Positions 28,812 through 49,013 of a stretch of DNA of 57,661 bases are shown in pieces. The stretch spans positions 1-57,661 of the forward strand of contig CAZBLV010000006.1 in the NCBI GenBank assembly GCA_964493085.1, written 5' to 3'. Under the pieces are notes generated by a model, which was not told the origin of the DNA, searched no databases, and worked only from the letters and a program-made list of their open reading frames with translations. A program made the position numbers and the translations under genes. The stretch is from an uncultured Candidatus Saccharibacteria bacterium (GTDB lineage Bacteria; Patescibacteriota; Minisyncoccia; Minisyncoccales; GWA2-38-27). Every line of letters starts with the position of its first letter. Position 1 is the stretch's first letter.

Positions 28812-30035
28812 GTGGCACGCTATTCTTATCTTGCAAAAACTCTAGACGGGGAGCCAAGGTCCGGCAACTCTGAAGCGCCGGATAAAAGCACATTGGCCAA
28901 AGCCCTTCGCAGCGAAGGGCTGGTTTTGATTTCAGCGGAAAAAATATCCCGGAAAACAAAAAAAAGCAGCAAGATTATTTCCCTTCTGCCCTTTTTAGGC
29001 AAGGTTTCCCTAAAAGACAAGATAATGTTTGCTAGAAATTTGAAAGTAATGATTTCTGCCGGCATTTCTCTTCCCCGTGCCCTAAATACGCTTTCTAAGC
29101 AGACCGATAGCAAGAAGTTTAAAAAAGTTTTGGATGACGTTGCCAATCAGATTATAAAAGGAAGCAGTTTTTCCGAAGCCCTTAGTTCTTATCAGGATAT
29201 ATTCTCTTCTTTGTTTATTAACATGATCAAGGTTGGAGAAGAAGCGGGGAACATGGAAGAGGTTTTGGAGGTGCTGACTCAGCACATGGAAAAAGACCAT
29301 GAATTAAGGTCAAAAATCAAAGGAGCTATGGTGTACCCGGCCGTGATCATCGTAGCCATGATCGGCATAGGAGTTCTAATGATGATAGTTGTCGTCCCAA
29401 AGTTGGCGGAGACCTTTGAAGACTTGGGAGTTGAGCTTCCTTTGACTACCCGGCTTGTTATCGGCGCTGGCAACTTTATGGCAGATTTTTGGTATTTGGC
29501 CATAATTTTCCTTATAGGGCTGGCTTTTTTAGCAAAACTTTTTTTGAAAAGCTCTACAGGAGAAAGGATTACCTCTTCTTTGTTTTTAAAAGTGCCGGGA
29601 GTGGTTGTTTTGGTTAAAAAGACAAATGCTGCCTATACTGCCAGGACGCTAGGCTCTTTGGTTGATTCTGGGGTGGCGATTGTCAGAGCGCTAGAGATTA
29701 CAGCCGGTACTTTGAGCAACGCTTGTTACAGAAAAGCTATTTTAGAATCTGCTCAAAGAGTGAAGAAAGGAGCTCGGCTTTCTGAAGTTTTGGGAAACTA
29801 CGACGATCTTTATCCTTCTTTAGTTATCCAAATGATGGCAGTGGGCGAGGAAACAGGCGCTACCGGAGATATGCTTCAAAAGTTGGCCGAATTTTACGAG
29901 TCAGAGGTCAGCAGGATTACCGATAATATTTCTTCGATTATAGAGCCTGTTTTAATGATTATTATCGGCGCGGCAGTTGGGTTTTTTGTAATCTCTATGA
30001 TTCAGCCGATTTACGGCATGATGGGCGCCCTCTAA
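28812..30035 (+). CDS. pilC: Type IV pilus platform protein PilC/GspF
   Basis: Two GspF repeats (VGEEAGNM; VGEETG), AMVYPA, IEPVLMI; GTG start. Confidence 0.93.
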   Translation: MARYSYLAKTLDGEPRSGNSEAPDKSTLAKALRSEGLVLISAEKISRKTKKSSKIISLLPFLGKVSLKDKIMFARNLKVMISAGISLPRALNTLSKQTDSKKFKKVLDDVANQIIKGSSFSEALSSYQDIFSSLFINMIKVGEEAGNMEEVLEVLTQHMEKDHELRSKIKGAMVYPAVIIVAMIGIGVLMMIVVVPKLAETFEDLGVELPLTTRLVIGAGNFMADFWYLAIIFLIGLAFLAKLFLKSSTGERITSSLFLKVPGVVVLVKKTNAAYTARTLGSLVDSGVAIVRALEITAGTLSNACYRKAILESAQRVKKGARLSEVLGNYDDLYPSLVIQMMAVGEETGATGDMLQKLAEFYESEVSRITDNISSIIEPVLMIIIGAAVGFFVISMIQPIYGMMGAL

Positions 30036-37643: not shown

Positions 37644-40600
37644 TTGCTGTCTTTGTCTTTGCTTTTCATTTTTTCCCAAAAAAAGAATGTAAGCATTACA
37701 GCTGAAATAGGGAAAGCTTTTTATTATATTCTGGCTAGCAAGGAAGAGCCGCCTTCAGTTGTCAAAGAAAAAACAATTTATGTGGACAATCAGTTAAGCG
37801 AAGATTGTCTTGGGACCTACTCTGTTTTAAAAAGAGATTGTTCCGGGAATGACGGAGACGCTTATAGATACATTGTTCAGGCAGCAAACGTTGCTCAAGC
37901 AGGAGACACGGTTTATATCAGGGAAGGAGTTTATGGAAGAAACCACGGGAAAAACTACAATGACGTTCTCTGGCCTAAGAATTCTGGCACTCGGAAAAAT
38001 CTTATTGTATTTAAATCGTATCCTGGAGAAAAAGCCGTTCTTGCGAATTACGATAACGGTAGTTATCCGAATGATTCAAGCTTAGTGTGTAAAAACGGCG
38101 TCCCGGACGGAGTTTTAGATTCTGGCAGGATTTCTATAGCAAGAGGGGTTATTTCTTTGTACAGGGTCAGCCACATTGTTATTGAAGACCTGGTTGTTGA
38201 AGATGTTGCCGCATGGGTTTTTGCGAGAGAGTCTTCCTATATAACCATTAATAATGTTAATTTTAGAGAGGCTACCTGGGACATAAAAGGCGGCGCAAGA
38301 TTTTATTACACAGACCACCTTAGGATTACAAACAGCACCTTTTACAAGTCGCGTTACGACGCTTTAGTCCTTCAGGCAACCGATTACAGCGTAATAGAAA
38401 ACAATTATTTCGAGGGCGCCGAGCATGCTGTTCTTGCTATCAGGTGCGGGAGCTATAATGTGATAAGAAACAACTATTTTAAGAACCCAATACAAAAGCT
38501 AGTCGAAGTTTATGATTGCAAAGTTCAAAATTCCGAATGCGAGAGCGACGGAGATGCTGTTAATCCTGCTTGGACTGATCCTCCGCAGTATGATTCAGCG
38601 CAGCATAATCTTTTCGAAGGAAACTTCTTCAGCTATATTCCTTATGCGTCCGGCAAAGGGGGGCAGCCGTCAGCAATGCAGTTTTCCGGACAGAATAATA
38701 TTATAAGGAAGAATATATTTTCAAATCCTGTTAATGTTACTGATACGTCCTCTTACCCTCTTTCCGACAAAAATCCTGGCTCTGGCGGAAGAGCTTTAAG
38801 TTTTAGATGGGGAGGATCATGGGAGGGATGGAAGTGTTATGAGGACAATTGTAAAATAGGGGGAGAAGGACACGAAGCCGGCTTTGTTTATGGGAACAGG
38901 GTATATAATAATGTTTTCAACGGTTATGATACCGGCCAGGTTGGCGTTTCTGACGAATCAGCGACGGATTCCTTCCCAACTTATGCGCCCATGAAAATGG
39001 TTGAAAATTATGAAGATTATCCTTTTAGCTATACTTGGATTTTCGAAGACAATGTTTTAAAAAACAATATTTTCTATGAGGGCAACTTTTCTCCTCATAT
39101 TAACTGGACTTACTACGAGAAACTTTCTGGAACGCCAGTTCAGGCCTTGATTCCTGGCGGGAAGAACATTCCTTATTTTGAGAATAATAATTTTTTTGCA
39201 ACAGGAAAATACAATGACTTATCTCCCAGAGAGGGATATCCTTATGAGAAAGCCACTGATTGGCTTATTTATTCCCACGGGCTTTACCCTTATTTAGGGG
39301 CAAGGCCTCCGGAGTTTTTCAACTCAAATCATCCTGACAAGTTTTCAGGGAACATTCAGAAAAACCCTGATTTTAAAAATCCGGAAGGAGAAGATTTTGA
39401 CTTGAGTGACAACAGCGAAATGATAGATGCCGGAGCTTTTTTGACCAGAACAGCTTCTTCTGGAAGCGGAAGAACATTGCAGGTAGAAGATGCTAAATAT
39501 TTTTATGATGGCTTTGGTATTTCAGGAGAAGTCGGAGATACCATACAGTTAGAGGGGCAGAGCCAGTCAGCGAGGATAACGGACATTGATTATAATGCGA
39601 ATACAATTACAGTTGACAAGAGCTTAAATTGGGATGCGGGAGCGGGAGTCAGTTTGGAATATTCTGGCTATGCTCCCGATATCGGCGTATCTGAGAGTGA
39701 GGGAGAGCCTCCTGTTGTCAGAGAATGCTCTAGGGACTCGGACTGCTCCACGAGAGGCCCGGGGTTTTTTTGCAATTCAGACAGTCAATGCGGATGGAAA
39801 CCACCCATCGGAATACCAAAACCTGAATTCGGGATAGAAGAAACATACAGGATGTATGATGATCCCGCGAATAGGAATCCCGAATTGACGTACACGAAGA
39901 ATTCCGAGGGAGGGTATTATACTCATTATGTTGATAACTCTGGGGATTGTCATAATCCCGAAAGCGTGACAGATTTCGGATCTCCCTCAGATCCTTTATG
40001 TAACTTTCCTCAAACTTCTGAGACATCCCTTCTTCCTCCAGGGAGCATTGTTGAGATTCATGGTGATGTATATGATGGTGGAGGGCGCGGATGGCGCAGA
40101 ATTGGATCCGGGGGGACGGAACAATATCCTGTATTTGTGAGAGGTTATTCAGAGAATGACAAACCATTATTTACCGGATACGGGAATTCATTAAGAATCG
40201 GCGGTACATATTTAATTATTGAAAATATCCAGGTAAATAATAGCTTGGTATTTCATAAAGACTTTACAACTCATGATTATATCTCAGTGAGGAATGTTGA
40301 GATAACTGGCGCGGGTTCAGGAATCAGTATGGGAAAAACAAATTATTCTGTTTTTTACAACAACTACATTCATGACACTGCTGCGGATTTCAAGGGAGAT
40401 ACGGATGTCCCTTCTGGCGGGGTCGGCATAATGGTGGGCTCTTATTCTAACCATGTATGGGTCTCGGATAATCATGTCCATGGAACTGGCTCAGATTCTT
40501 TCCATTCTGGACACGGCGGGGTTGACATCCGTTATGTTTATGTCGGGAGAAACGAATTCCATCATGATAAGGAGAATGCCATCGACATAAAGGCTGTAAA

Positions 40601-41360
40601 GGATTTTATAATCTCACAGAACAAGGTGTATGGTTATAGGGATTCATGCAGTTCCGGGGCAGATGCAATCCGGGTGAATGATGAAGGCGATCAGGACAAT
40701 ATCTGGATAATCTTTAATGAGATCTATGACAGTGATGTGGGGATTGCCCCTTATAGTGCAACATTCAGGCCTTATATAATCGGGAATATTATTTATGATA
40801 CGCCCAGCAAAGCAATCAATGATAATGGGAATACCAGTAAGGGGGGTTCTACGGTCGTGTATAATACATTTTATGATACCGGCATAGCGATTAATAAGGT
40901 AAAAGAATGCAACAATAATATAATTTCATCTGCCAATACTCCGATAGTTGGCGATTGTAATGAACACAACAATATCTTAGATGAGTCACTTGTCAATATG
41001 CCTGAGTTTTGTGAGAGAATAAATTATTTTGAATATTATACAGATTCTGCCGTCTTGACCAATACAGGCAATAGCACGACTATTAGTGTTTCCGATGTTG
41101 ATTTTGAAGATATGGGAATAGAATACGATGACAGAGTCTCTGTTGAATATATTCCAGAAGTGGCTTATAACTCGGAGACTTGCCCAAATGGATGCTTTGC
41201 AGGAGGGACAAGCACAAGACCTTTTTGTGCATGGCAGAGGGTTGGTAGTATAAGCGGAGACACCATAACATTAAAACCATCCGTTTCTCCTTATTCAGAC
41301 AACATTGCGTGTCCTGATACAACAAGTGTTTCCGGGGTTAATATAAGAATCTGGTATTAG
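37644..41360 (+). CDS. Giant surface protein, N-terminal part: two right-handed beta-helix (pectate-lyase-like) modules
   Basis: AQAGDTVYIREGVY, many I.NN.F / N.F..N rungs, DFDLSDNSEMIDAG...APDIG. Ends at a TAG that is in frame with the next ORF. Confidence 0.8.
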   Translation: MLSLSLLFIFSQKKNVSITAEIGKAFYYILASKEEPPSVVKEKTIYVDNQLSEDCLGTYSVLKRDCSGNDGDAYRYIVQAANVAQAGDTVYIREGVYGRNHGKNYNDVLWPKNSGTRKNLIVFKSYPGEKAVLANYDNGSYPNDSSLVCKNGVPDGVLDSGRISIARGVISLYRVSHIVIEDLVVEDVAAWVFARESSYITINNVNFREATWDIKGGARFYYTDHLRITNSTFYKSRYDALVLQATDYSVIENNYFEGAEHAVLAIRCGSYNVIRNNYFKNPIQKLVEVYDCKVQNSECESDGDAVNPAWTDPPQYDSAQHNLFEGNFFSYIPYASGKGGQPSAMQFSGQNNIIRKNIFSNPVNVTDTSSYPLSDKNPGSGGRALSFRWGGSWEGWKCYEDNCKIGGEGHEAGFVYGNRVYNNVFNGYDTGQVGVSDESATDSFPTYAPMKMVENYEDYPFSYTWIFEDNVLKNNIFYEGNFSPHINWTYYEKLSGTPVQALIPGGKNIPYFENNNFFATGKYNDLSPREGYPYEKATDWLIYSHGLYPYLGARPPEFFNSNHPDKFSGNIQKNPDFKNPEGEDFDLSDNSEMIDAGAFLTRTASSGSGRTLQVEDAKYFYDGFGISGEVGDTIQLEGQSQSARITDIDYNANTITVDKSLNWDAGAGVSLEYSGYAPDIGVSESEGEPPVVRECSRDSDCSTRGPGFFCNSDSQCGWKPPIGIPKPEFGIEETYRMYDDPANRNPELTYTKNSEGGYYTHYVDNSGDCHNPESVTDFGSPSDPLCNFPQTSETSLLPPGSIVEIHGDVYDGGGRGWRRIGSGGTEQYPVFVRGYSENDKPLFTGYGNSLRIGGTYLIIENIQVNNSLVFHKDFTTHDYISVRNVEITGAGSGISMGKTNYSVFYNNYIHDTAADFKGDTDVPSGGVGIMVGSYSNHVWVSDNHVHGTGSDSFHSGHGGVDIRYVYVGRNEFHHDKENAIDIKAVKDFIISQNKVYGYRDSCSSGADAIRVNDEGDQDNIWIIFNEIYDSDVGIAPYSATFRPYIIGNIIYDTPSKAINDNGNTSKGGSTVVYNTFYDTGIAINKVKECNNNIISSANTPIVGDCNEHNNILDESLVNMPEFCERINYFEYYTDSAVLTNTGNSTTISVSDVDFEDMGIEYDDRVSVEYIPEVAYNSETCPNGCFAGGTSTRPFCAWQRVGSISGDTITLKPSVSPYSDNIACPDTTSVSGVNIRIWY

Positions 41361-41381: not shown

Positions 41382-44300
41382 TTGTTTGTTGATTCTGGTT
41401 TGGATTTTCAGGTTGGGGATATTATTGAATATAATTATGATGGAGTTGCCAGGACAATAACTTCCATTACAGGCGGATTTTCAGATCAGGAAGGAAATCC
41501 TAAGGTTAAGGTTGACTTTGCCCCGGCTCTAAGCGTTAAAGCAGAAGGAGATATGTCTTTATGCAACTGGAGAACTAATAATAACCTTGTCAGAGATTTG
41601 AGGCTTGCTGCTGGAAGTGCTGCGATAGACGCAGGGAATAAAACGGCATTTTACGAGCTTTTTGAGACAACGTGGCAGAGTGATTTCGCAGCACTTAATA
41701 GTGAAGAGCAACTGAACATAAGGTATGGTTTCTACGGTAATCCGAGACCAATAGACGGCGATGGGGATGGAAGCGCAGAATGGGATATAGGGGCTTGTGA
41801 ACATGCTTCAGGAAAGGATGTCCCTGTTGAGCCAGTTTGCGGAAACGGCATAATTGAAACAGGAGAGGTCTGCGATGGAAACTCAAAAGCATGCACAGTC
41901 AATAAATACCGGGGAACTCAGCAATGCAACAATCTTTGTACGGGATGGGAATCTTGCGTAACCACAGAAAACTGCGAAGACGGGATACAGAACGGCGATG
42001 AAACGGGGATTGATTGCGGGGGCAGCTGTGTCAGCGGTTTAGAGATTTGCGATAATGGATTAGACGATGATAATGATTGTAAAATAGATGAAGATTGTTT
42101 TAATGGGGCCAGGTGCGATCCTTTTTTCGACGCTTCTTGGACTGCCGAAGGCGACATATTGGCTGGAGAATTTGATTCAAGCAAATCTTCGGACTATTTG
42201 TCTGTTGTTAGCTCTGATGGCGAACATGTTTTACAAGCTTCTGGAGAATTGGGCGAACATAGGTATGAGAGGGTTGTCAGAGAAAATATCGGCTCGATGA
42301 AAGCATGGGGAGGATCTATATCTGTAAACCTTAAAGATCTTGAATATTACAATTTTATTGGGGACCTCGCTTTTGTCGGGGGATATGAATATCCGGGAGA
42401 TTGGTCAAGCAGGGATTTTGTTATTGGTGCCGACAAGCACGCTAATAGACCTTATATCTATGTAATGGGATACCACAATAATGATCTTGCTAGGAGTTTT
42501 GGCGATGAGTATTTTGCTGTTTCAGATGCCTTAACGGATTGGCCTGACAGATTCATAACGATTAAATGGTATTTTACTTCTTCTAATAAATTATTTGCCA
42601 GCGTGGATGGCGGCGAGTGGAGGGAGATTGATGTGGGGTCGCACATAGTCAACCATGAGGAGGTTGCTATCGGATGGGTGAGCTCGTATAACGGAGGCAA
42701 TGTTAAGATCAGTAATTTAAAACTGTATGACGGAAACTGTGTTCCCATAGAGACTGCCCAACATACTATAACGGCTTCAGCGGGCACGGGCGGGAGCATT
42801 AGTCCCAGTGGCGCAGTAAAAATAAATGAAGGGGGAGACAAGACCTTTTCTATAACAGCAGATGAGGGCTATGAGATAGCTGATGTCTTAGTAGACGGGG
42901 CGTCAGTAGGCTCCGTATCAACCCATACTTTTGATAATATAACCGAAGATCATGCCATTAGCGCAAGCTTTGAGGCGAAAACTTATAATTTGACGGTAGA
43001 GGCAAGCAATGGAACAGTAACCAGATCGCCGGATAAAGAAAGCTATGACCATGGCGAAGCAGTAGAGCTTACTGCCGTGCCAGATGCAGGATACGATTTT
43101 CTTAACTGGAGCGGAGATGCGAAAAGTACAGATAATCCCTTGGTTTTGGCTATGGACGAAGACAAATCTATTGCAGCAAACTTTAATCCGACGCCCGAGG
43201 GATGCCAAGACCAGGACGGAGACGGAATATTAGATTACCATTCTCAACTATGCCCTGCAGGGAAAGATATCTGCGTTGAGAAAAAGTCAGATATCAGCGA
43301 TTTTACGCCCTATAGGCCAAAATCCAGTAAATTTTCTCTTAATTACAACAAGAGCGATGACTTGGAAGATATATCTGACTTTAGGATAGAAAAACAGGAA
43401 ACCGCTCAAATTTATTTTCAAGAAAGTCTTAATTTATTGAAACTTAACCCTGACAATGGCTGTTATGTCCAAAAAGATTTAGACGAAGGCATAGAAATAG
43501 AAAACAAAAGAGTTTTTATAGACACAAATAAACATCCGGATTTAAACAAAAAAGCCAGAATTACTTTTTACGGTATAGACTATGAAGAACCAAAGATGTT
43601 TAAAGATGGGCAAGCGTGCCAAGAGCCCCAATGCAGAATAATAGAATACAACAAGGAAGACAGAACCTTGACCATAGAAGTCCAGGGATTTTCAGAATAT
43701 AAGGTGGTAGAATGCATTACAGTTTCTGACTGCGAAGAAAAGACCTGCCAGACAGCCAGTTGCAGCGAGGGAACATGTCTTTACAGTGACATGGTAGACG
43801 GGGCTTCTTGCGATGACGGCCTGGTCTGCACAGAAAACGATTCCTGCCAGTCGGGAGAATGCATTGGAGATTCTGTTGATACAGACGATAGCATAGCTTG
43901 CACTATAGACGGTTGCGACGAGATAAACGGTATAACCCATGTCCCAGACGACGACCAGTGCCCTTCTGGCCAGATCTGTGATGTCGAACAGGGATGCATT
44001 TCCACCGAAGACGGCAGCGGCCCTGGCGGAGGAGGAGCCAGCAGCGACAGAACAGCCCCCCTTATAAGCGAAATCGAAGCTTCAGCTGACCAGCGTTCAG
44101 CTGTTGTCAGCTGGGAGACAAATGAGCCTTCTATTACTTGGCTAGTCTATGGGCAGGACACAGATTATAGCGAAGAAATGAAAATTACGGATTACAGCAC
44201 CTCTCATTCTGTTGATATATCAGATCTTTCTCCCGAAACCACTTATTACTACCGAATAAAAGCTAAAGATTCTTCTGGCAACATCAGAGAATCAGCCGAG

Positions 44301-44726
44301 AAAACCTTTGTTACTCCAGAAGAAAAGGAGGACGAAGACGAGCTAAGATTGAATTTAATCGCTTTGCTTTTAAAGAGGATTATCTATCTTAAAGATCTCT
44401 TGGCCGGCCGGGAGGAGGGCCAGGTTATTTATGGAATTCCGGCAGAATTTGAATTTAGAAGGAATTTGTTCTTGGGGCAAAACTTAGAGGAAATACAATA
44501 TTTGCAGATGATTTTAAATTCTTATCCCGACACTCGGCTTGCCCAAAGAGGATGGGGTTCTCCGGGCAATGAAACAATTCATTTCGGCCCTCTTACCAGA
44601 ATAGCTGTAATTAAATTCCAAAACAAATATGCTTCGGAGATCTTGCATCCGACAGGAAGGCAGGCTGCAACAGGCATTGTGGGGCCTTCGACAAGAGCTA
44701 AGTTAAACGAGCTGTTAGGCAAATAA
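41382..44726 (+). CDS. Giant surface protein, C-terminal part: Cys-rich repeats, InlB-B-like repeats, FN3 and peptidoglycan-binding domain
   Basis: LRLAAGSAAIDAG...WDIGACE, CGNGIIETGEVCDG, TITASAGTGGSISP, VSWETNEP...LSPETTYYYRI, GSPGNETIHFGPLTRIAVIKFQ...GIVGPSTRAKLN. Confidence 0.8.
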   Translation: MFVDSGLDFQVGDIIEYNYDGVARTITSITGGFSDQEGNPKVKVDFAPALSVKAEGDMSLCNWRTNNNLVRDLRLAAGSAAIDAGNKTAFYELFETTWQSDFAALNSEEQLNIRYGFYGNPRPIDGDGDGSAEWDIGACEHASGKDVPVEPVCGNGIIETGEVCDGNSKACTVNKYRGTQQCNNLCTGWESCVTTENCEDGIQNGDETGIDCGGSCVSGLEICDNGLDDDNDCKIDEDCFNGARCDPFFDASWTAEGDILAGEFDSSKSSDYLSVVSSDGEHVLQASGELGEHRYERVVRENIGSMKAWGGSISVNLKDLEYYNFIGDLAFVGGYEYPGDWSSRDFVIGADKHANRPYIYVMGYHNNDLARSFGDEYFAVSDALTDWPDRFITIKWYFTSSNKLFASVDGGEWREIDVGSHIVNHEEVAIGWVSSYNGGNVKISNLKLYDGNCVPIETAQHTITASAGTGGSISPSGAVKINEGGDKTFSITADEGYEIADVLVDGASVGSVSTHTFDNITEDHAISASFEAKTYNLTVEASNGTVTRSPDKESYDHGEAVELTAVPDAGYDFLNWSGDAKSTDNPLVLAMDEDKSIAANFNPTPEGCQDQDGDGILDYHSQLCPAGKDICVEKKSDISDFTPYRPKSSKFSLNYNKSDDLEDISDFRIEKQETAQIYFQESLNLLKLNPDNGCYVQKDLDEGIEIENKRVFIDTNKHPDLNKKARITFYGIDYEEPKMFKDGQACQEPQCRIIEYNKEDRTLTIEVQGFSEYKVVECITVSDCEEKTCQTASCSEGTCLYSDMVDGASCDDGLVCTENDSCQSGECIGDSVDTDDSIACTIDGCDEINGITHVPDDDQCPSGQICDVEQGCISTEDGSGPGGGGASSDRTAPLISEIEASADQRSAVVSWETNEPSITWLVYGQDTDYSEEMKITDYSTSHSVDISDLSPETTYYYRIKAKDSSGNIRESAEKTFVTPEEKEDEDELRLNLIALLLKRIIYLKDLLAGREEGQVIYGIPAEFEFRRNLFLGQNLEEIQYLQMILNSYPDTRLAQRGWGSPGNETIHFGPLTRIAVIKFQNKYASEILHPTGRQAATGIVGPSTRAKLNELLGK

Positions 44727-44789: not shown

Positions 44790-44862
44790 GCCCCTGTAGT
44801 TCAACAGGAAAGAACGTCTCCCTCCTAAGGAGAAAATGGAAGTTCGAATCTCCCCGGGGGCA
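44790..44862 (+). tRNA. tRNA-Arg (CCT)
   Basis: GCCCCTG/CGGGGGC acceptor, TCTCC-CTCCTAA-GGAGA anticodon arm, GTTCGAATC. Confidence 0.92.
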
Positions 44863-44865
44863 CTC

Positions 44866-44893
44866 TTGACATTAACTCTTACTTTATTAAAAT
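44866..44893 (+). promoter_or_regulatory. Promoter of the candidate ncRNA
   Basis: TTGACA-N16-TAAAAT; predicted +1 at about 44900-44901. Confidence 0.7.
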
Positions 44894-44900
44894 ACCGTAT

Positions 44901-45037
44901 GGGGGATGAGGGATTTTGAAAACAAAATTCCCAATAGGACATCGAGGATTGACAAAAGAGGTTTGAGGATATCCCTGGACCCACGTCCTAGTTCAGCCTT
45001 AAGGAGTTAAACCGAATTTGTCGACCTCGTTTCCCCC
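44901..45037 (+). ncRNA. Candidate structured non-coding RNA of unknown family (6S-like or novel)
   Basis: Own promoter and terminator, no plus-strand ORF, closing stem GGGGGA/TCCCCC, 13-bp and 7-bp helices, possible TAGGAC/GTCCTA pseudoknot. Confidence 0.6.
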
Positions 45038-45039
45038 TT

Positions 45040-45067
45040 AAGAACAGCCCGTTTATGGGCTGTTTTT
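45040..45067 (+). terminator. Intrinsic terminator of the ncRNA
   Basis: AACAGCCCG-TTTA-TGGGCTGTT plus T-run. Confidence 0.8.
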
Positions 45068-45127
45068 AGTTTATTAATCTGTTATAATTAAATAAAAGGT
45101 CTTTATTAGTCAACAACTTTTTTAAAA

Positions 45128-45403
45128 ATGGCAGAACAAAAAAACAATTCTCCCGAAGGGGAGCAGATCGGACAAGTAGTTCATTTCTTTTCTCATATAA
45201 GCGTAGCTGTCATTAAGCTGGAAAAACCTTTGGCTGCGGGAGACAGCATCCGCATTATCGGAGGAGAAGATACGGATTTTACCCAAGAAGTGGAATCCAT
45301 GGAAGCAGAACACGAAAAAGTGGAAAAAGCCAAGTCAGGAGATGAGGTGGGGTTAAAGGTAAAAGAAAAAGTAAGGGACGGCTATAAGGTTTATAGGGCG
45401 TAA
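45128..45403 (+). CDS. Translation-elongation-factor-like beta-barrel protein (EF-Tu domain II / U32 C-terminal-like)
   Basis: GQVVHFFSHISVAVI...GDSIRI...FTQEVESM...GDEVGLKV.EKVR.GYKVY. Confidence 0.8.
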   Translation: MAEQKNNSPEGEQIGQVVHFFSHISVAVIKLEKPLAAGDSIRIIGGEDTDFTQEVESMEAEHEKVEKAKSGDEVGLKVKEKVRDGYKVYRA

Positions 45404-48857: not shown

Positions 48858-49013
48858 TTATATTTCAGGAGTTTCTTCTTCTCCTCCTTCTTCAGGAGTT
48901 TCTTCTTCTCCTCCTTCTTCAGAAGTTTCTTCTTCTCCTCCTTCTTCAGAAGTTTCTTCCTCTTCTCCTCCTTCTTCAGGAGCTTCTTGAAGGTTTAATT
49001 TTTCTAAGATCAT
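48858..49013 (-). CDS. 51-aa Glu-rich tandem-repeat peptide
   Basis: MILEKLNLQEAPEEGGEEEETSEEGGEEETSEEGGEEETPEEGGEEETPEI; own promoter and terminator; below the 60-aa track cutoff. Confidence 0.7.
   Translation of the reverse strand: MILEKLNLQEAPEEGGEEEETSEEGGEEETSEEGGEEETPEEGGEEETPEI
48864..48980. repeat. About 4 tandem copies of a 27-bp unit (one of 30 bp)
   Basis: TTCAGGAGTTTCTTCTTCTCCTCCTTC repeats, encoding EEGGEEET[PS] on the minus strand. Confidence 0.9.

Follow-up and report, generated by a model that had tools for sequence, protein, structure and literature searches.

The 57,661-nt stretch of DNA analysed here (the window) encodes a small noncoding RNA (ncRNA) which, judging from its homologues, is a real conserved family with strong comparative evidence for self-pairing. 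We predict, with a probability of roughly 0.6, that it acts as a symmetric homodimer, in which two copies would be held together through palindromes by a crossover-type joint and would serve as a pseudoknotted scaffold or decoy. The prediction stems from the loop between helices P4 and P5, where both strands are palindromic, a feature absent from an earlier reading of this DNA (referred to here as the original prediction).

The host genome consists of 603 kb in 14 contigs and is 98% complete. The ncRNA gene and its flanking signals are on the + strand, and all of the coordinates in the original prediction agree with the sequence. The upstream neighbour, outside the ncRNA, is tRNA-Arg(CCT) (44790-44863). 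It is followed by a sigma70-type promoter, TTGACA-16-TAAAAT (44866-44893; 11 of 12 consensus matches), by the conserved core of about 135 nt, closed by P1 and delimited by folding, homologues and covariation (44901-45037), and by an intrinsic terminator recognized by sequence scan and folding (45038-45069). Consensus scans for promoters and terminators are, alone, no better than chance; for example, two promoter-like sites were found and 2.7 were expected by chance. Both signals are kept in the homologues: TTGAC lies 32-40 nt upstream of the ncRNA in 78 of the 80 with a readable flank, and a terminator-like hairpin, as defined by a loose script rule, lies 3' of it in 81 of 83. Thus, the promoter and the strong terminator that had been proposed are borne out, and so are the lack of a sense ORF (none of 50 aa or more was found within the ncRNA region) and the separate TGnTATAAT element (45080-45088) of the downstream gene, which encodes a 91-aa protein resembling EF-Tu domain II/U32_C (45128-45403, + strand; EF-like below). 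The proposed RNA length of about 137 nt fits the core, but the primary transcript including the terminator would be about 168 nt. The fold z score is -3.2 for the core and -5.5 with the terminator. Because the promoter and terminator are kept and the downstream gene varies, the comparison indicates that the ncRNA is a free-standing gene with its own signals, independent of its neighbours, and not a leader.

Thirty loci were obtained when 61 related genomes were searched at the DNA level, and the ncRNA is present in 17 of these. Three rounds of covariance-model searches over 151 genomes of the order, with later models trained on earlier matches, found it in 68, 77 and then 81 genomes. The third round gave no match in 70 of the 151 genomes, which implies that the ncRNA is probably not essential throughout the order. 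By our own count it occurs in 43 of the 76 families in the order, mostly in an all-or-none manner per family. When the syntenic sites were read in 20 genomes negative with the first model, four had a divergent copy and 16 had none. In a class-level sample the ncRNA is present in two of 151 genomes, the host genome included, and a phylum-level sample produced a single weak 44-nt match. Two sequence patterns gave no ncRNA matches in viral contigs, and a loose contig pattern identified a full ncRNA in one of 120 among the matches listed. The ncRNA is nearly always single-copy. The exception is a duplicated locus in one genome (G009), where L037 and L106, on different contigs, carry equal-scoring copies of the ncRNA and of the downstream gene; the second copy may be an artefact of assembly. 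One partial homologue with a weak match (L105) was left out of the alignment.

The genes around the ncRNA vary. Of 83 homologues, 39 are followed by a LOG/TIGR00725-like gene, 33 by an EF-like gene and 11 by another gene, and the EF-like gene is present inside the locus in 70. EF-like protein matches occur in 131 of the 151 genomes, including most of the ncRNA-negative ones, and a few of these matches are long U32 peptidases. The ncRNA is carried by 71 of the 131 EF-like-positive genomes and by 10 of the 20 EF-like-negative ones; that is, no match to the protein was obtained in 10 ncRNA-positive genomes. The EF-like protein was therefore rejected as an obligate partner, since its presence does not track the ncRNA, and it is merely a syntenic neighbour. 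The LOG-like gene and a methyltransferase gene also adjoin ncRNA-negative sites, and none of the proteins tested (EF-like, CsrA and SRP_SPB) co-occurs with the ncRNA. A neighbouring protein has a relative from Candidatus Staskawiczbacteria with 48% identity; this and the genome size suggest that the host belongs to the Patescibacteria (Parcubacteria). In family f29 the ncRNA lies about 310 nt from what we take to be a divergent DnaA-like gene, and in family f55 it is directly 5' of what is presumably a DnaN-like gene (loci L050, L057, L043 and L045 in the two families together). In the host genome, the DnaA-like gene is on a contig other than that of the ncRNA. Elsewhere in the window are two adjacent ORFs of 1238 and 1114 aa (37644-41360 and 41382-44726), which are 21 nt apart and are possibly a split surface protein; the 1114-aa ORF has InlB-B, fn3 and peptidoglycan-binding-like domains. 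A 51-aa ORF with EEGGEEET repeats is located at 48858-49013.

The predicted helices P1 to P5 and a GGAC/GUCC pseudoknot are shown by covariation to form. P1 (44901-44906/45032-45037) closes the core and is followed by the P2 hairpin (44910-44932), which is 11-26 nt among the homologues and is missing in three short variants of 114-119 nt (L104, L119 and L253) that retain P1, palindrome 1 and the pseudoknot core. The pseudoknot 5' arm (44935-44940; core GGAC, 44937-44940) is in the joining strand J2/3. P3 (44943-44956/45017-45029) is separated from P4 (44960-44964/45009-45013) by a 3x3 purine internal loop (44957-44959/45014-45016), in which one A per side is invariant in all 83 aligned rows and which likely forms tandem G-A pairs. 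The P5 hairpin (44975-44996) has the pseudoknot 3' arm (44985-44990; core GUCC) within its loop. In the 83-sequence alignment 91% of the cells pair, compared with at most 59% in slid controls, the alignment itself having been fitted to 35 of the 45 pairs, and 41 of the 45 pairs changed on both sides. The helices contain 333 G-U and 58 A-C combinations, an excess that supports the + strand as the RNA. Near-invariant alignment columns are G49, G50, C52, G81, A82 and A169. The P4/P5 loop strands are mostly 10-11 and 9-12 nt long, and GGAC is 17-21 nt from P4.

The pseudoknot pairs were part of no covariance model used. Their core is invariant among 17 close homologues, and more distant ones have compensatory versions: GGGC/GCCC (L056, L099 and L247), GGCC/GGCC (L069), GGCA/UGCC (L104), GGCAGA/UCUGCC (L250-L252), GGGUC/GACCC (L254) and GGGCA/UGCCC (L124 and L392). 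These letters uphold the core of the GTCCTA/TAGGAC pseudoknot in the original prediction, which had also suggested a covariation check; P1 to P5 and the pseudoknot do covary among the homologues. Its P1, its hairpin at 44910-44932, its 13-bp helix at 44943-44956/45017-45029 and, as CTGG/TCAG, its stem CTGGAC/GTTCAG all stand on this evidence. Its 7-bp helix (44960-44966/45007-45013) covaries as well, but five base pairs are conserved rather than seven. A rod-like alternative had been allowed for, and single-sequence folding does prefer GGAC 44977-44980 with GUCC 44985-44988, but this pairing is not conserved. Single-sequence folding of the host-genome copy also pairs GAGG with CCUU across the P4/P5 loop.

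Palindrome 1, GGATATCC (44967-44974, + strand), an 8-nt self-complementary element predicted to form an intermolecular helix, is located on the 5' side of the P4/P5 loop. Palindromes were counted in a fixed register in 172 distinct homologues, with no mis-registered rows dropped. Watson-Crick letters are found in 149 rows for pair 1-8 (shuffle mean 101, maximum 114), 151 for 2-7 (61 and 83), 159 for 3-6 (122 and 132) and 154 for 4-5 (57 and 76); because the homologues are related to one another, comparison with shuffles makes the significance look greater than it is. The central pair 4-5 consists of adjacent bases and is GC in 66 rows, UA in 58, AU in 17 and CG in 13. When the palindromes were excluded from tree building, the changes needed on the tree were 34 and 40 for the two bases and 43 for the pair, versus 34, 56 and 73 for an unrelated control pair on the same tree; in the 83-row alignment less 11 mis-registered rows, the centre-pair values are 21, 22 and 22. 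No column pairs in the 83-row alignment covary more strongly than 2-7 and 4-5; the model behind this alignment held pairs 1-8 and 2-7 and not 3-6 and 4-5. Two bases next to each other are unable to pair within the same chain; the likeliest partner of palindrome 1 is, therefore, another copy of the ncRNA. Obligate self-pairing is unusually clear in the evolution of this ncRNA, with compensatory swaps by the dozen at neighbouring positions.

Perfect palindrome 1 8-mers are found in 135 of the 172 homologues when a one-base shift is allowed, and they are of 33 kinds. Among distinct imperfect 8-mers, taken in the best of three registers, G-U is counted 18 times and A-C one time, which indicates an RNA on the + strand. 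Two control strands, J2/3 and L5, have 8-mer palindromes in 0 of 83 sequences each. A held-out set was obtained from metagenomes with a pattern for the 5' half that does not touch the palindromes; it gave at least 119 matches, and 95 of them remained for use after four truncated, 12 duplicate and eight already-known sequences were left out. Among the matches listed, 93 of the 95 are full homologues, 70 have a perfect palindrome 1 8-mer (3.7% in shuffles) and 87 have one if G-U is allowed (10% in shuffles). These sequences are kin of the training set, and so they confirm the palindrome rule and are not independent events.

Palindrome 2, CCTTAAGG (44997-45004, + strand), is on the 3' strand of the same loop. 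It covaries as well, more weakly, and its centre is often mismatched. Of 172 rows, 100, 111 and 114 have Watson-Crick letters at its three outer pairs, versus 45, 55 and 71 when shuffled, and 78 have them at its centre, versus a shuffle mean of 55 and a maximum of 73. The centre mismatches include AA in 30 rows and UU in 18, and on the tree the centre pair changed 80 times, versus 48 and 56 changes per side. A perfect 6-mer is present in 71 of the 172, and single mismatches are G-U in 13 and A-C in nine. A perfect 8-mer occurs in 27 of the 83 aligned sequences and, among the matches listed, in 28 of the 95 held-out ones, each versus 3-4% shuffled. Three very divergent members (L124, L254 and L118) retain both palindromes. 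Mean self-duplex energies are -12.7 kcal/mol for palindrome 1 and -7.8 kcal/mol for palindrome 2 (shuffled, -4.4 and -4.0 kcal/mol), while cross-pairing of palindrome 1 with palindrome 2 averages only -1.5 kcal/mol. Avoidance of identical cores between the two palindromes was not significant (0 versus 0.56 expected). Palindrome 2 could be a 2-bp cis hairpin or could be optional.

These observations can be put together as follows. An independent gene, as its own promoter, its terminator and the lack of an ORF show from sequence and conservation, would produce an RNA that folds, on the covariation evidence, into P1 to P5 and the GGAC/GUCC pseudoknot. Palindrome 1 would then zip with palindrome 1 of a second copy. 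We consider this 8-bp pairing between two copies very probable, and a dimer or multimer of some kind is, with the same confidence, to be expected. If palindrome 2 pairs with the same partner, the loops would swap strands and create two four-way junctions about 8 bp apart, each predicted to join P4 of copy A, palindrome 1, P5 of copy B and palindrome 2. We put this double strand exchange at slightly under even odds. Pairing of both palindromes with the same partner would imply the connectivity of a paranemic crossover (PX), a motif that Afonin is said to have engineered in RNA in 2008. The P5 loop of one copy would come to lie beside P4/P3 of the other, and so the pseudoknot may be intermolecular, that is, domain-swapped; the spacings of 17-21 nt and 8-10 nt fit a fixed reach and are no proof of this. 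The complete picture, a natural paranemic-crossover RNA with a double loop-strand swap and domain-swapped pseudoknots, is a tentative prediction with the odds somewhat against it. Conservation of letters is concentrated in P1, the pseudoknot and the GA loop, which probably form a folded face, most likely a protein-binding one. Binding of a protein to the G-rich P1, the pseudoknot and the GA loop of the dimer may occur, and we regard it as the more doubtful part of the proposal. The dimer would display two such pseudoknotted faces and could be a bivalent protein-binding scaffold or decoy. The loop strands are conserved for symmetry and not for letters, which makes mRNA targeting by base pairing unlikely.

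The best of the alternatives, which we nevertheless consider unlikely, is that each palindrome pairs with a different partner, and that rings, cages or filaments are built instead of a closed dimer. Two self-complementary sites that do not pair with each other, plus a possibly intermolecular pseudoknot, would permit such an assembly, and the accessible text of a recent preprint reports that the short natural RNAs manA and EGFOA form trimers to 60-mers (bioRxiv 2026.07.01.735769). However, the palindromes of this ncRNA are on opposite strands of one small loop and match in length, which suits a single partner, and palindrome 2 is often imperfect.

Improbable, in our opinion, is a ribozyme or ligand-binding RNA in which the pseudoknot and the invariant purines would be the active site and dimerization would play a supporting role. 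The near-invariant columns and fixed spacings are what such an RNA would have, but the pseudoknot letters vary in distant members and there is no Rfam ribozyme or riboswitch match. The terminator lies outside the core without overlapping it and the downstream gene varies, and hence a cis riboswitch was rejected. In fact, at the gathering threshold Rfam identified tRNAs alone in the whole window; at E 10 the region gave chance matches on the terminator, and the ncRNA in 10 homologous loci gave nothing. This negative result, from a search that had been suggested at the outset, and the strong covariation support the earlier proposal of a new ncRNA class.

The other earlier proposal, a divergent short 6S RNA, finds no support. 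A second 6S RNA that mimics an open promoter and binds sigma70-RNA polymerase would, like this ncRNA, be stand-alone and similar in size with a strong promoter, and the long P3-P4 helix lies beside an open region. RF00013 does not match the ncRNA at E 10, and this says little, because the model is weak in the order (three of 151 genomes), where 6S RNAs are probably under-annotated for the same reason. The host genome, however, has a separate 6S-like gene (L031:1501-1646; contig C14:47865-48010), which is the sole RF00013 match of the genome (E 8e-8, a score under the cut-off). This gene is served by a promoter and a terminator of its own, folds as a rod with a z score of -5.2, and is kept in five of five family relatives tested that also carry the ncRNA. 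In addition, 6S RNA is a rod with a central bubble, while the ncRNA has a closing stem P1 of only 6-7 bp and a one-sided "bubble" that contains a branch hairpin and is bound in the covarying pseudoknot. The palindromes would also go unexplained, and we judge this reading very unlikely.

Equally remote are the readings that the ncRNA replaces SRP RNA or is left over from it, or that it forms a particle together with the EF-Tu-domain-II-like protein encoded downstream. The host genome has neither a detectable SRP RNA nor SRP54 (Ffh), and the SRP_SPB domain is found in 0 of 151 genomes of the order; the EF-like gene is, as noted above, in most of the loci. However, the SRP models RF00169 and RF01854 and the helix-8 motif have no match in the ncRNA, and the EF-like protein has matches in most ncRNA-negative genomes and none in 10 positive ones. 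The earlier statement that the hallmarks of SRP RNA, tmRNA and RNase P RNA are lacking agrees with the searches. A tmRNA or RNase P RNA was rejected, as neither model matches and both roles are filled elsewhere in the genome. The RNase P RNA (L032; contig C12:12573-12906) is 334 nt and scores 56 bits, the Rfam cut-off being 100. A Y RNA was rejected as well, its Ro60/TROVE partner not being found in the host genome.

It is scarcely credible that the palindromes are DNA sites (an operator or restriction-modification sites): many variants presumably resemble restriction sites, which counts for this reading, but a protein that recognizes a specific DNA sequence would keep the letters constant and see no difference between the strands, whereas the perfect 8-mers are of 33 kinds and include each of the four centre types, and the imperfect ones have far more G-U than A-C. 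Just as far-fetched is the idea that GGA and AAGGAGG motifs let the ncRNA soak up CsrA in the manner of CsrB, or serve as a Shine-Dalgarno decoy: there are three consensus GGA motifs and the host 0.6-Mb genome encodes CsrA (L257:1483-1662, contig C10), but CsrA is above the cut-off in eight of the 151 genomes, mostly in families f1 and f2, compared with 81 for the ncRNA, the pseudoknot GGA becomes GGG, GGC or GCA, and the 3' end of the host 16S rRNA (contig C2, about 29400-29460) lacks the anti-Shine-Dalgarno CCUCC.

Returning to the symmetric homodimer, genomes of about 0.6 Mb that lack SRP keep this ncRNA across 43 families, which suggests that it probably has a useful function. It is a small and easy target for cryo-EM, and zero-loop covariation offers a search rule for further RNA multimers. 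If the prediction is true, a joint known from RNA nanotechnology would possibly have its first natural case in this ncRNA, which would also be the smallest RNA nanostructure of the paranemic-crossover kind to be encoded in a genome, with a housekeeping job.

Palindrome-driven dimerization has precedent, while for this family and its double-palindrome loop none was found in the literature and Rfam searched. With subscription journals mostly outside the coverage, no paper evidently describes the ncRNA; one cluster of the COMPASS preprint (2026.10.21.760802), whose accessible text mentions millions of clusters, may hold it. In OLE and GOLLD, which have been solved by cryo-EM, adjacent-base covariation was read as intermolecular pairing (PMC12286853, accessible text); palindromes with such covariation in OLE L9.3 and GOLLD L21a mark intermolecular pairs, as we predict here, and the same hallmark of OLE and ARRPOF is found in the ncRNA. 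According to the accessible text of PMC12286853 and PMC12990946, OLE and ARRPOF are homodimers and GOLLD and ROOL form cages, and all of them are orphan self-associating bacterial ncRNAs, as the ncRNA would be. They are, however, 255-830 nt long and associate through kissing interactions between hairpin loops of 2-4 nt, whereas the ncRNA is about 135 nt, has no Rfam match and has an 8-nt palindrome with a second one opposite it in an internal loop. EGFOA (RF02955) and manA (RF01745) are closer in size (<200 nt) and form trimers, strand-exchanged dimers and cages, but the interfaces described in the accessible text are kissing loops or 3'-end strand exchange and not internal-loop palindromes (bioRxiv 2026.07.01.735769); RF02955 has no match in the host genome at E 10.

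The word "paranemic" is absent from the accessible text of a review from 2026 on quaternary structures in natural RNAs (PMC12990946). In the engineered PX motif, open internal loops pair strand by strand with an optimum of 8 nt (PMC6214983, PMC12847892, PMC10376919), and 8 bp was selected for RNA paranemic cohesion as the best A-form fit (PMC6214983, PMC12847892; accessible text in each case). Palindrome 1 could make such a loop-strand pairing over about 8 bp, and palindrome 2 could do so in part. In the accessible text of these papers PX is described as synthetic; the version in this ncRNA, with its predicted geometry, would be natural, homodimeric and self-complementary.
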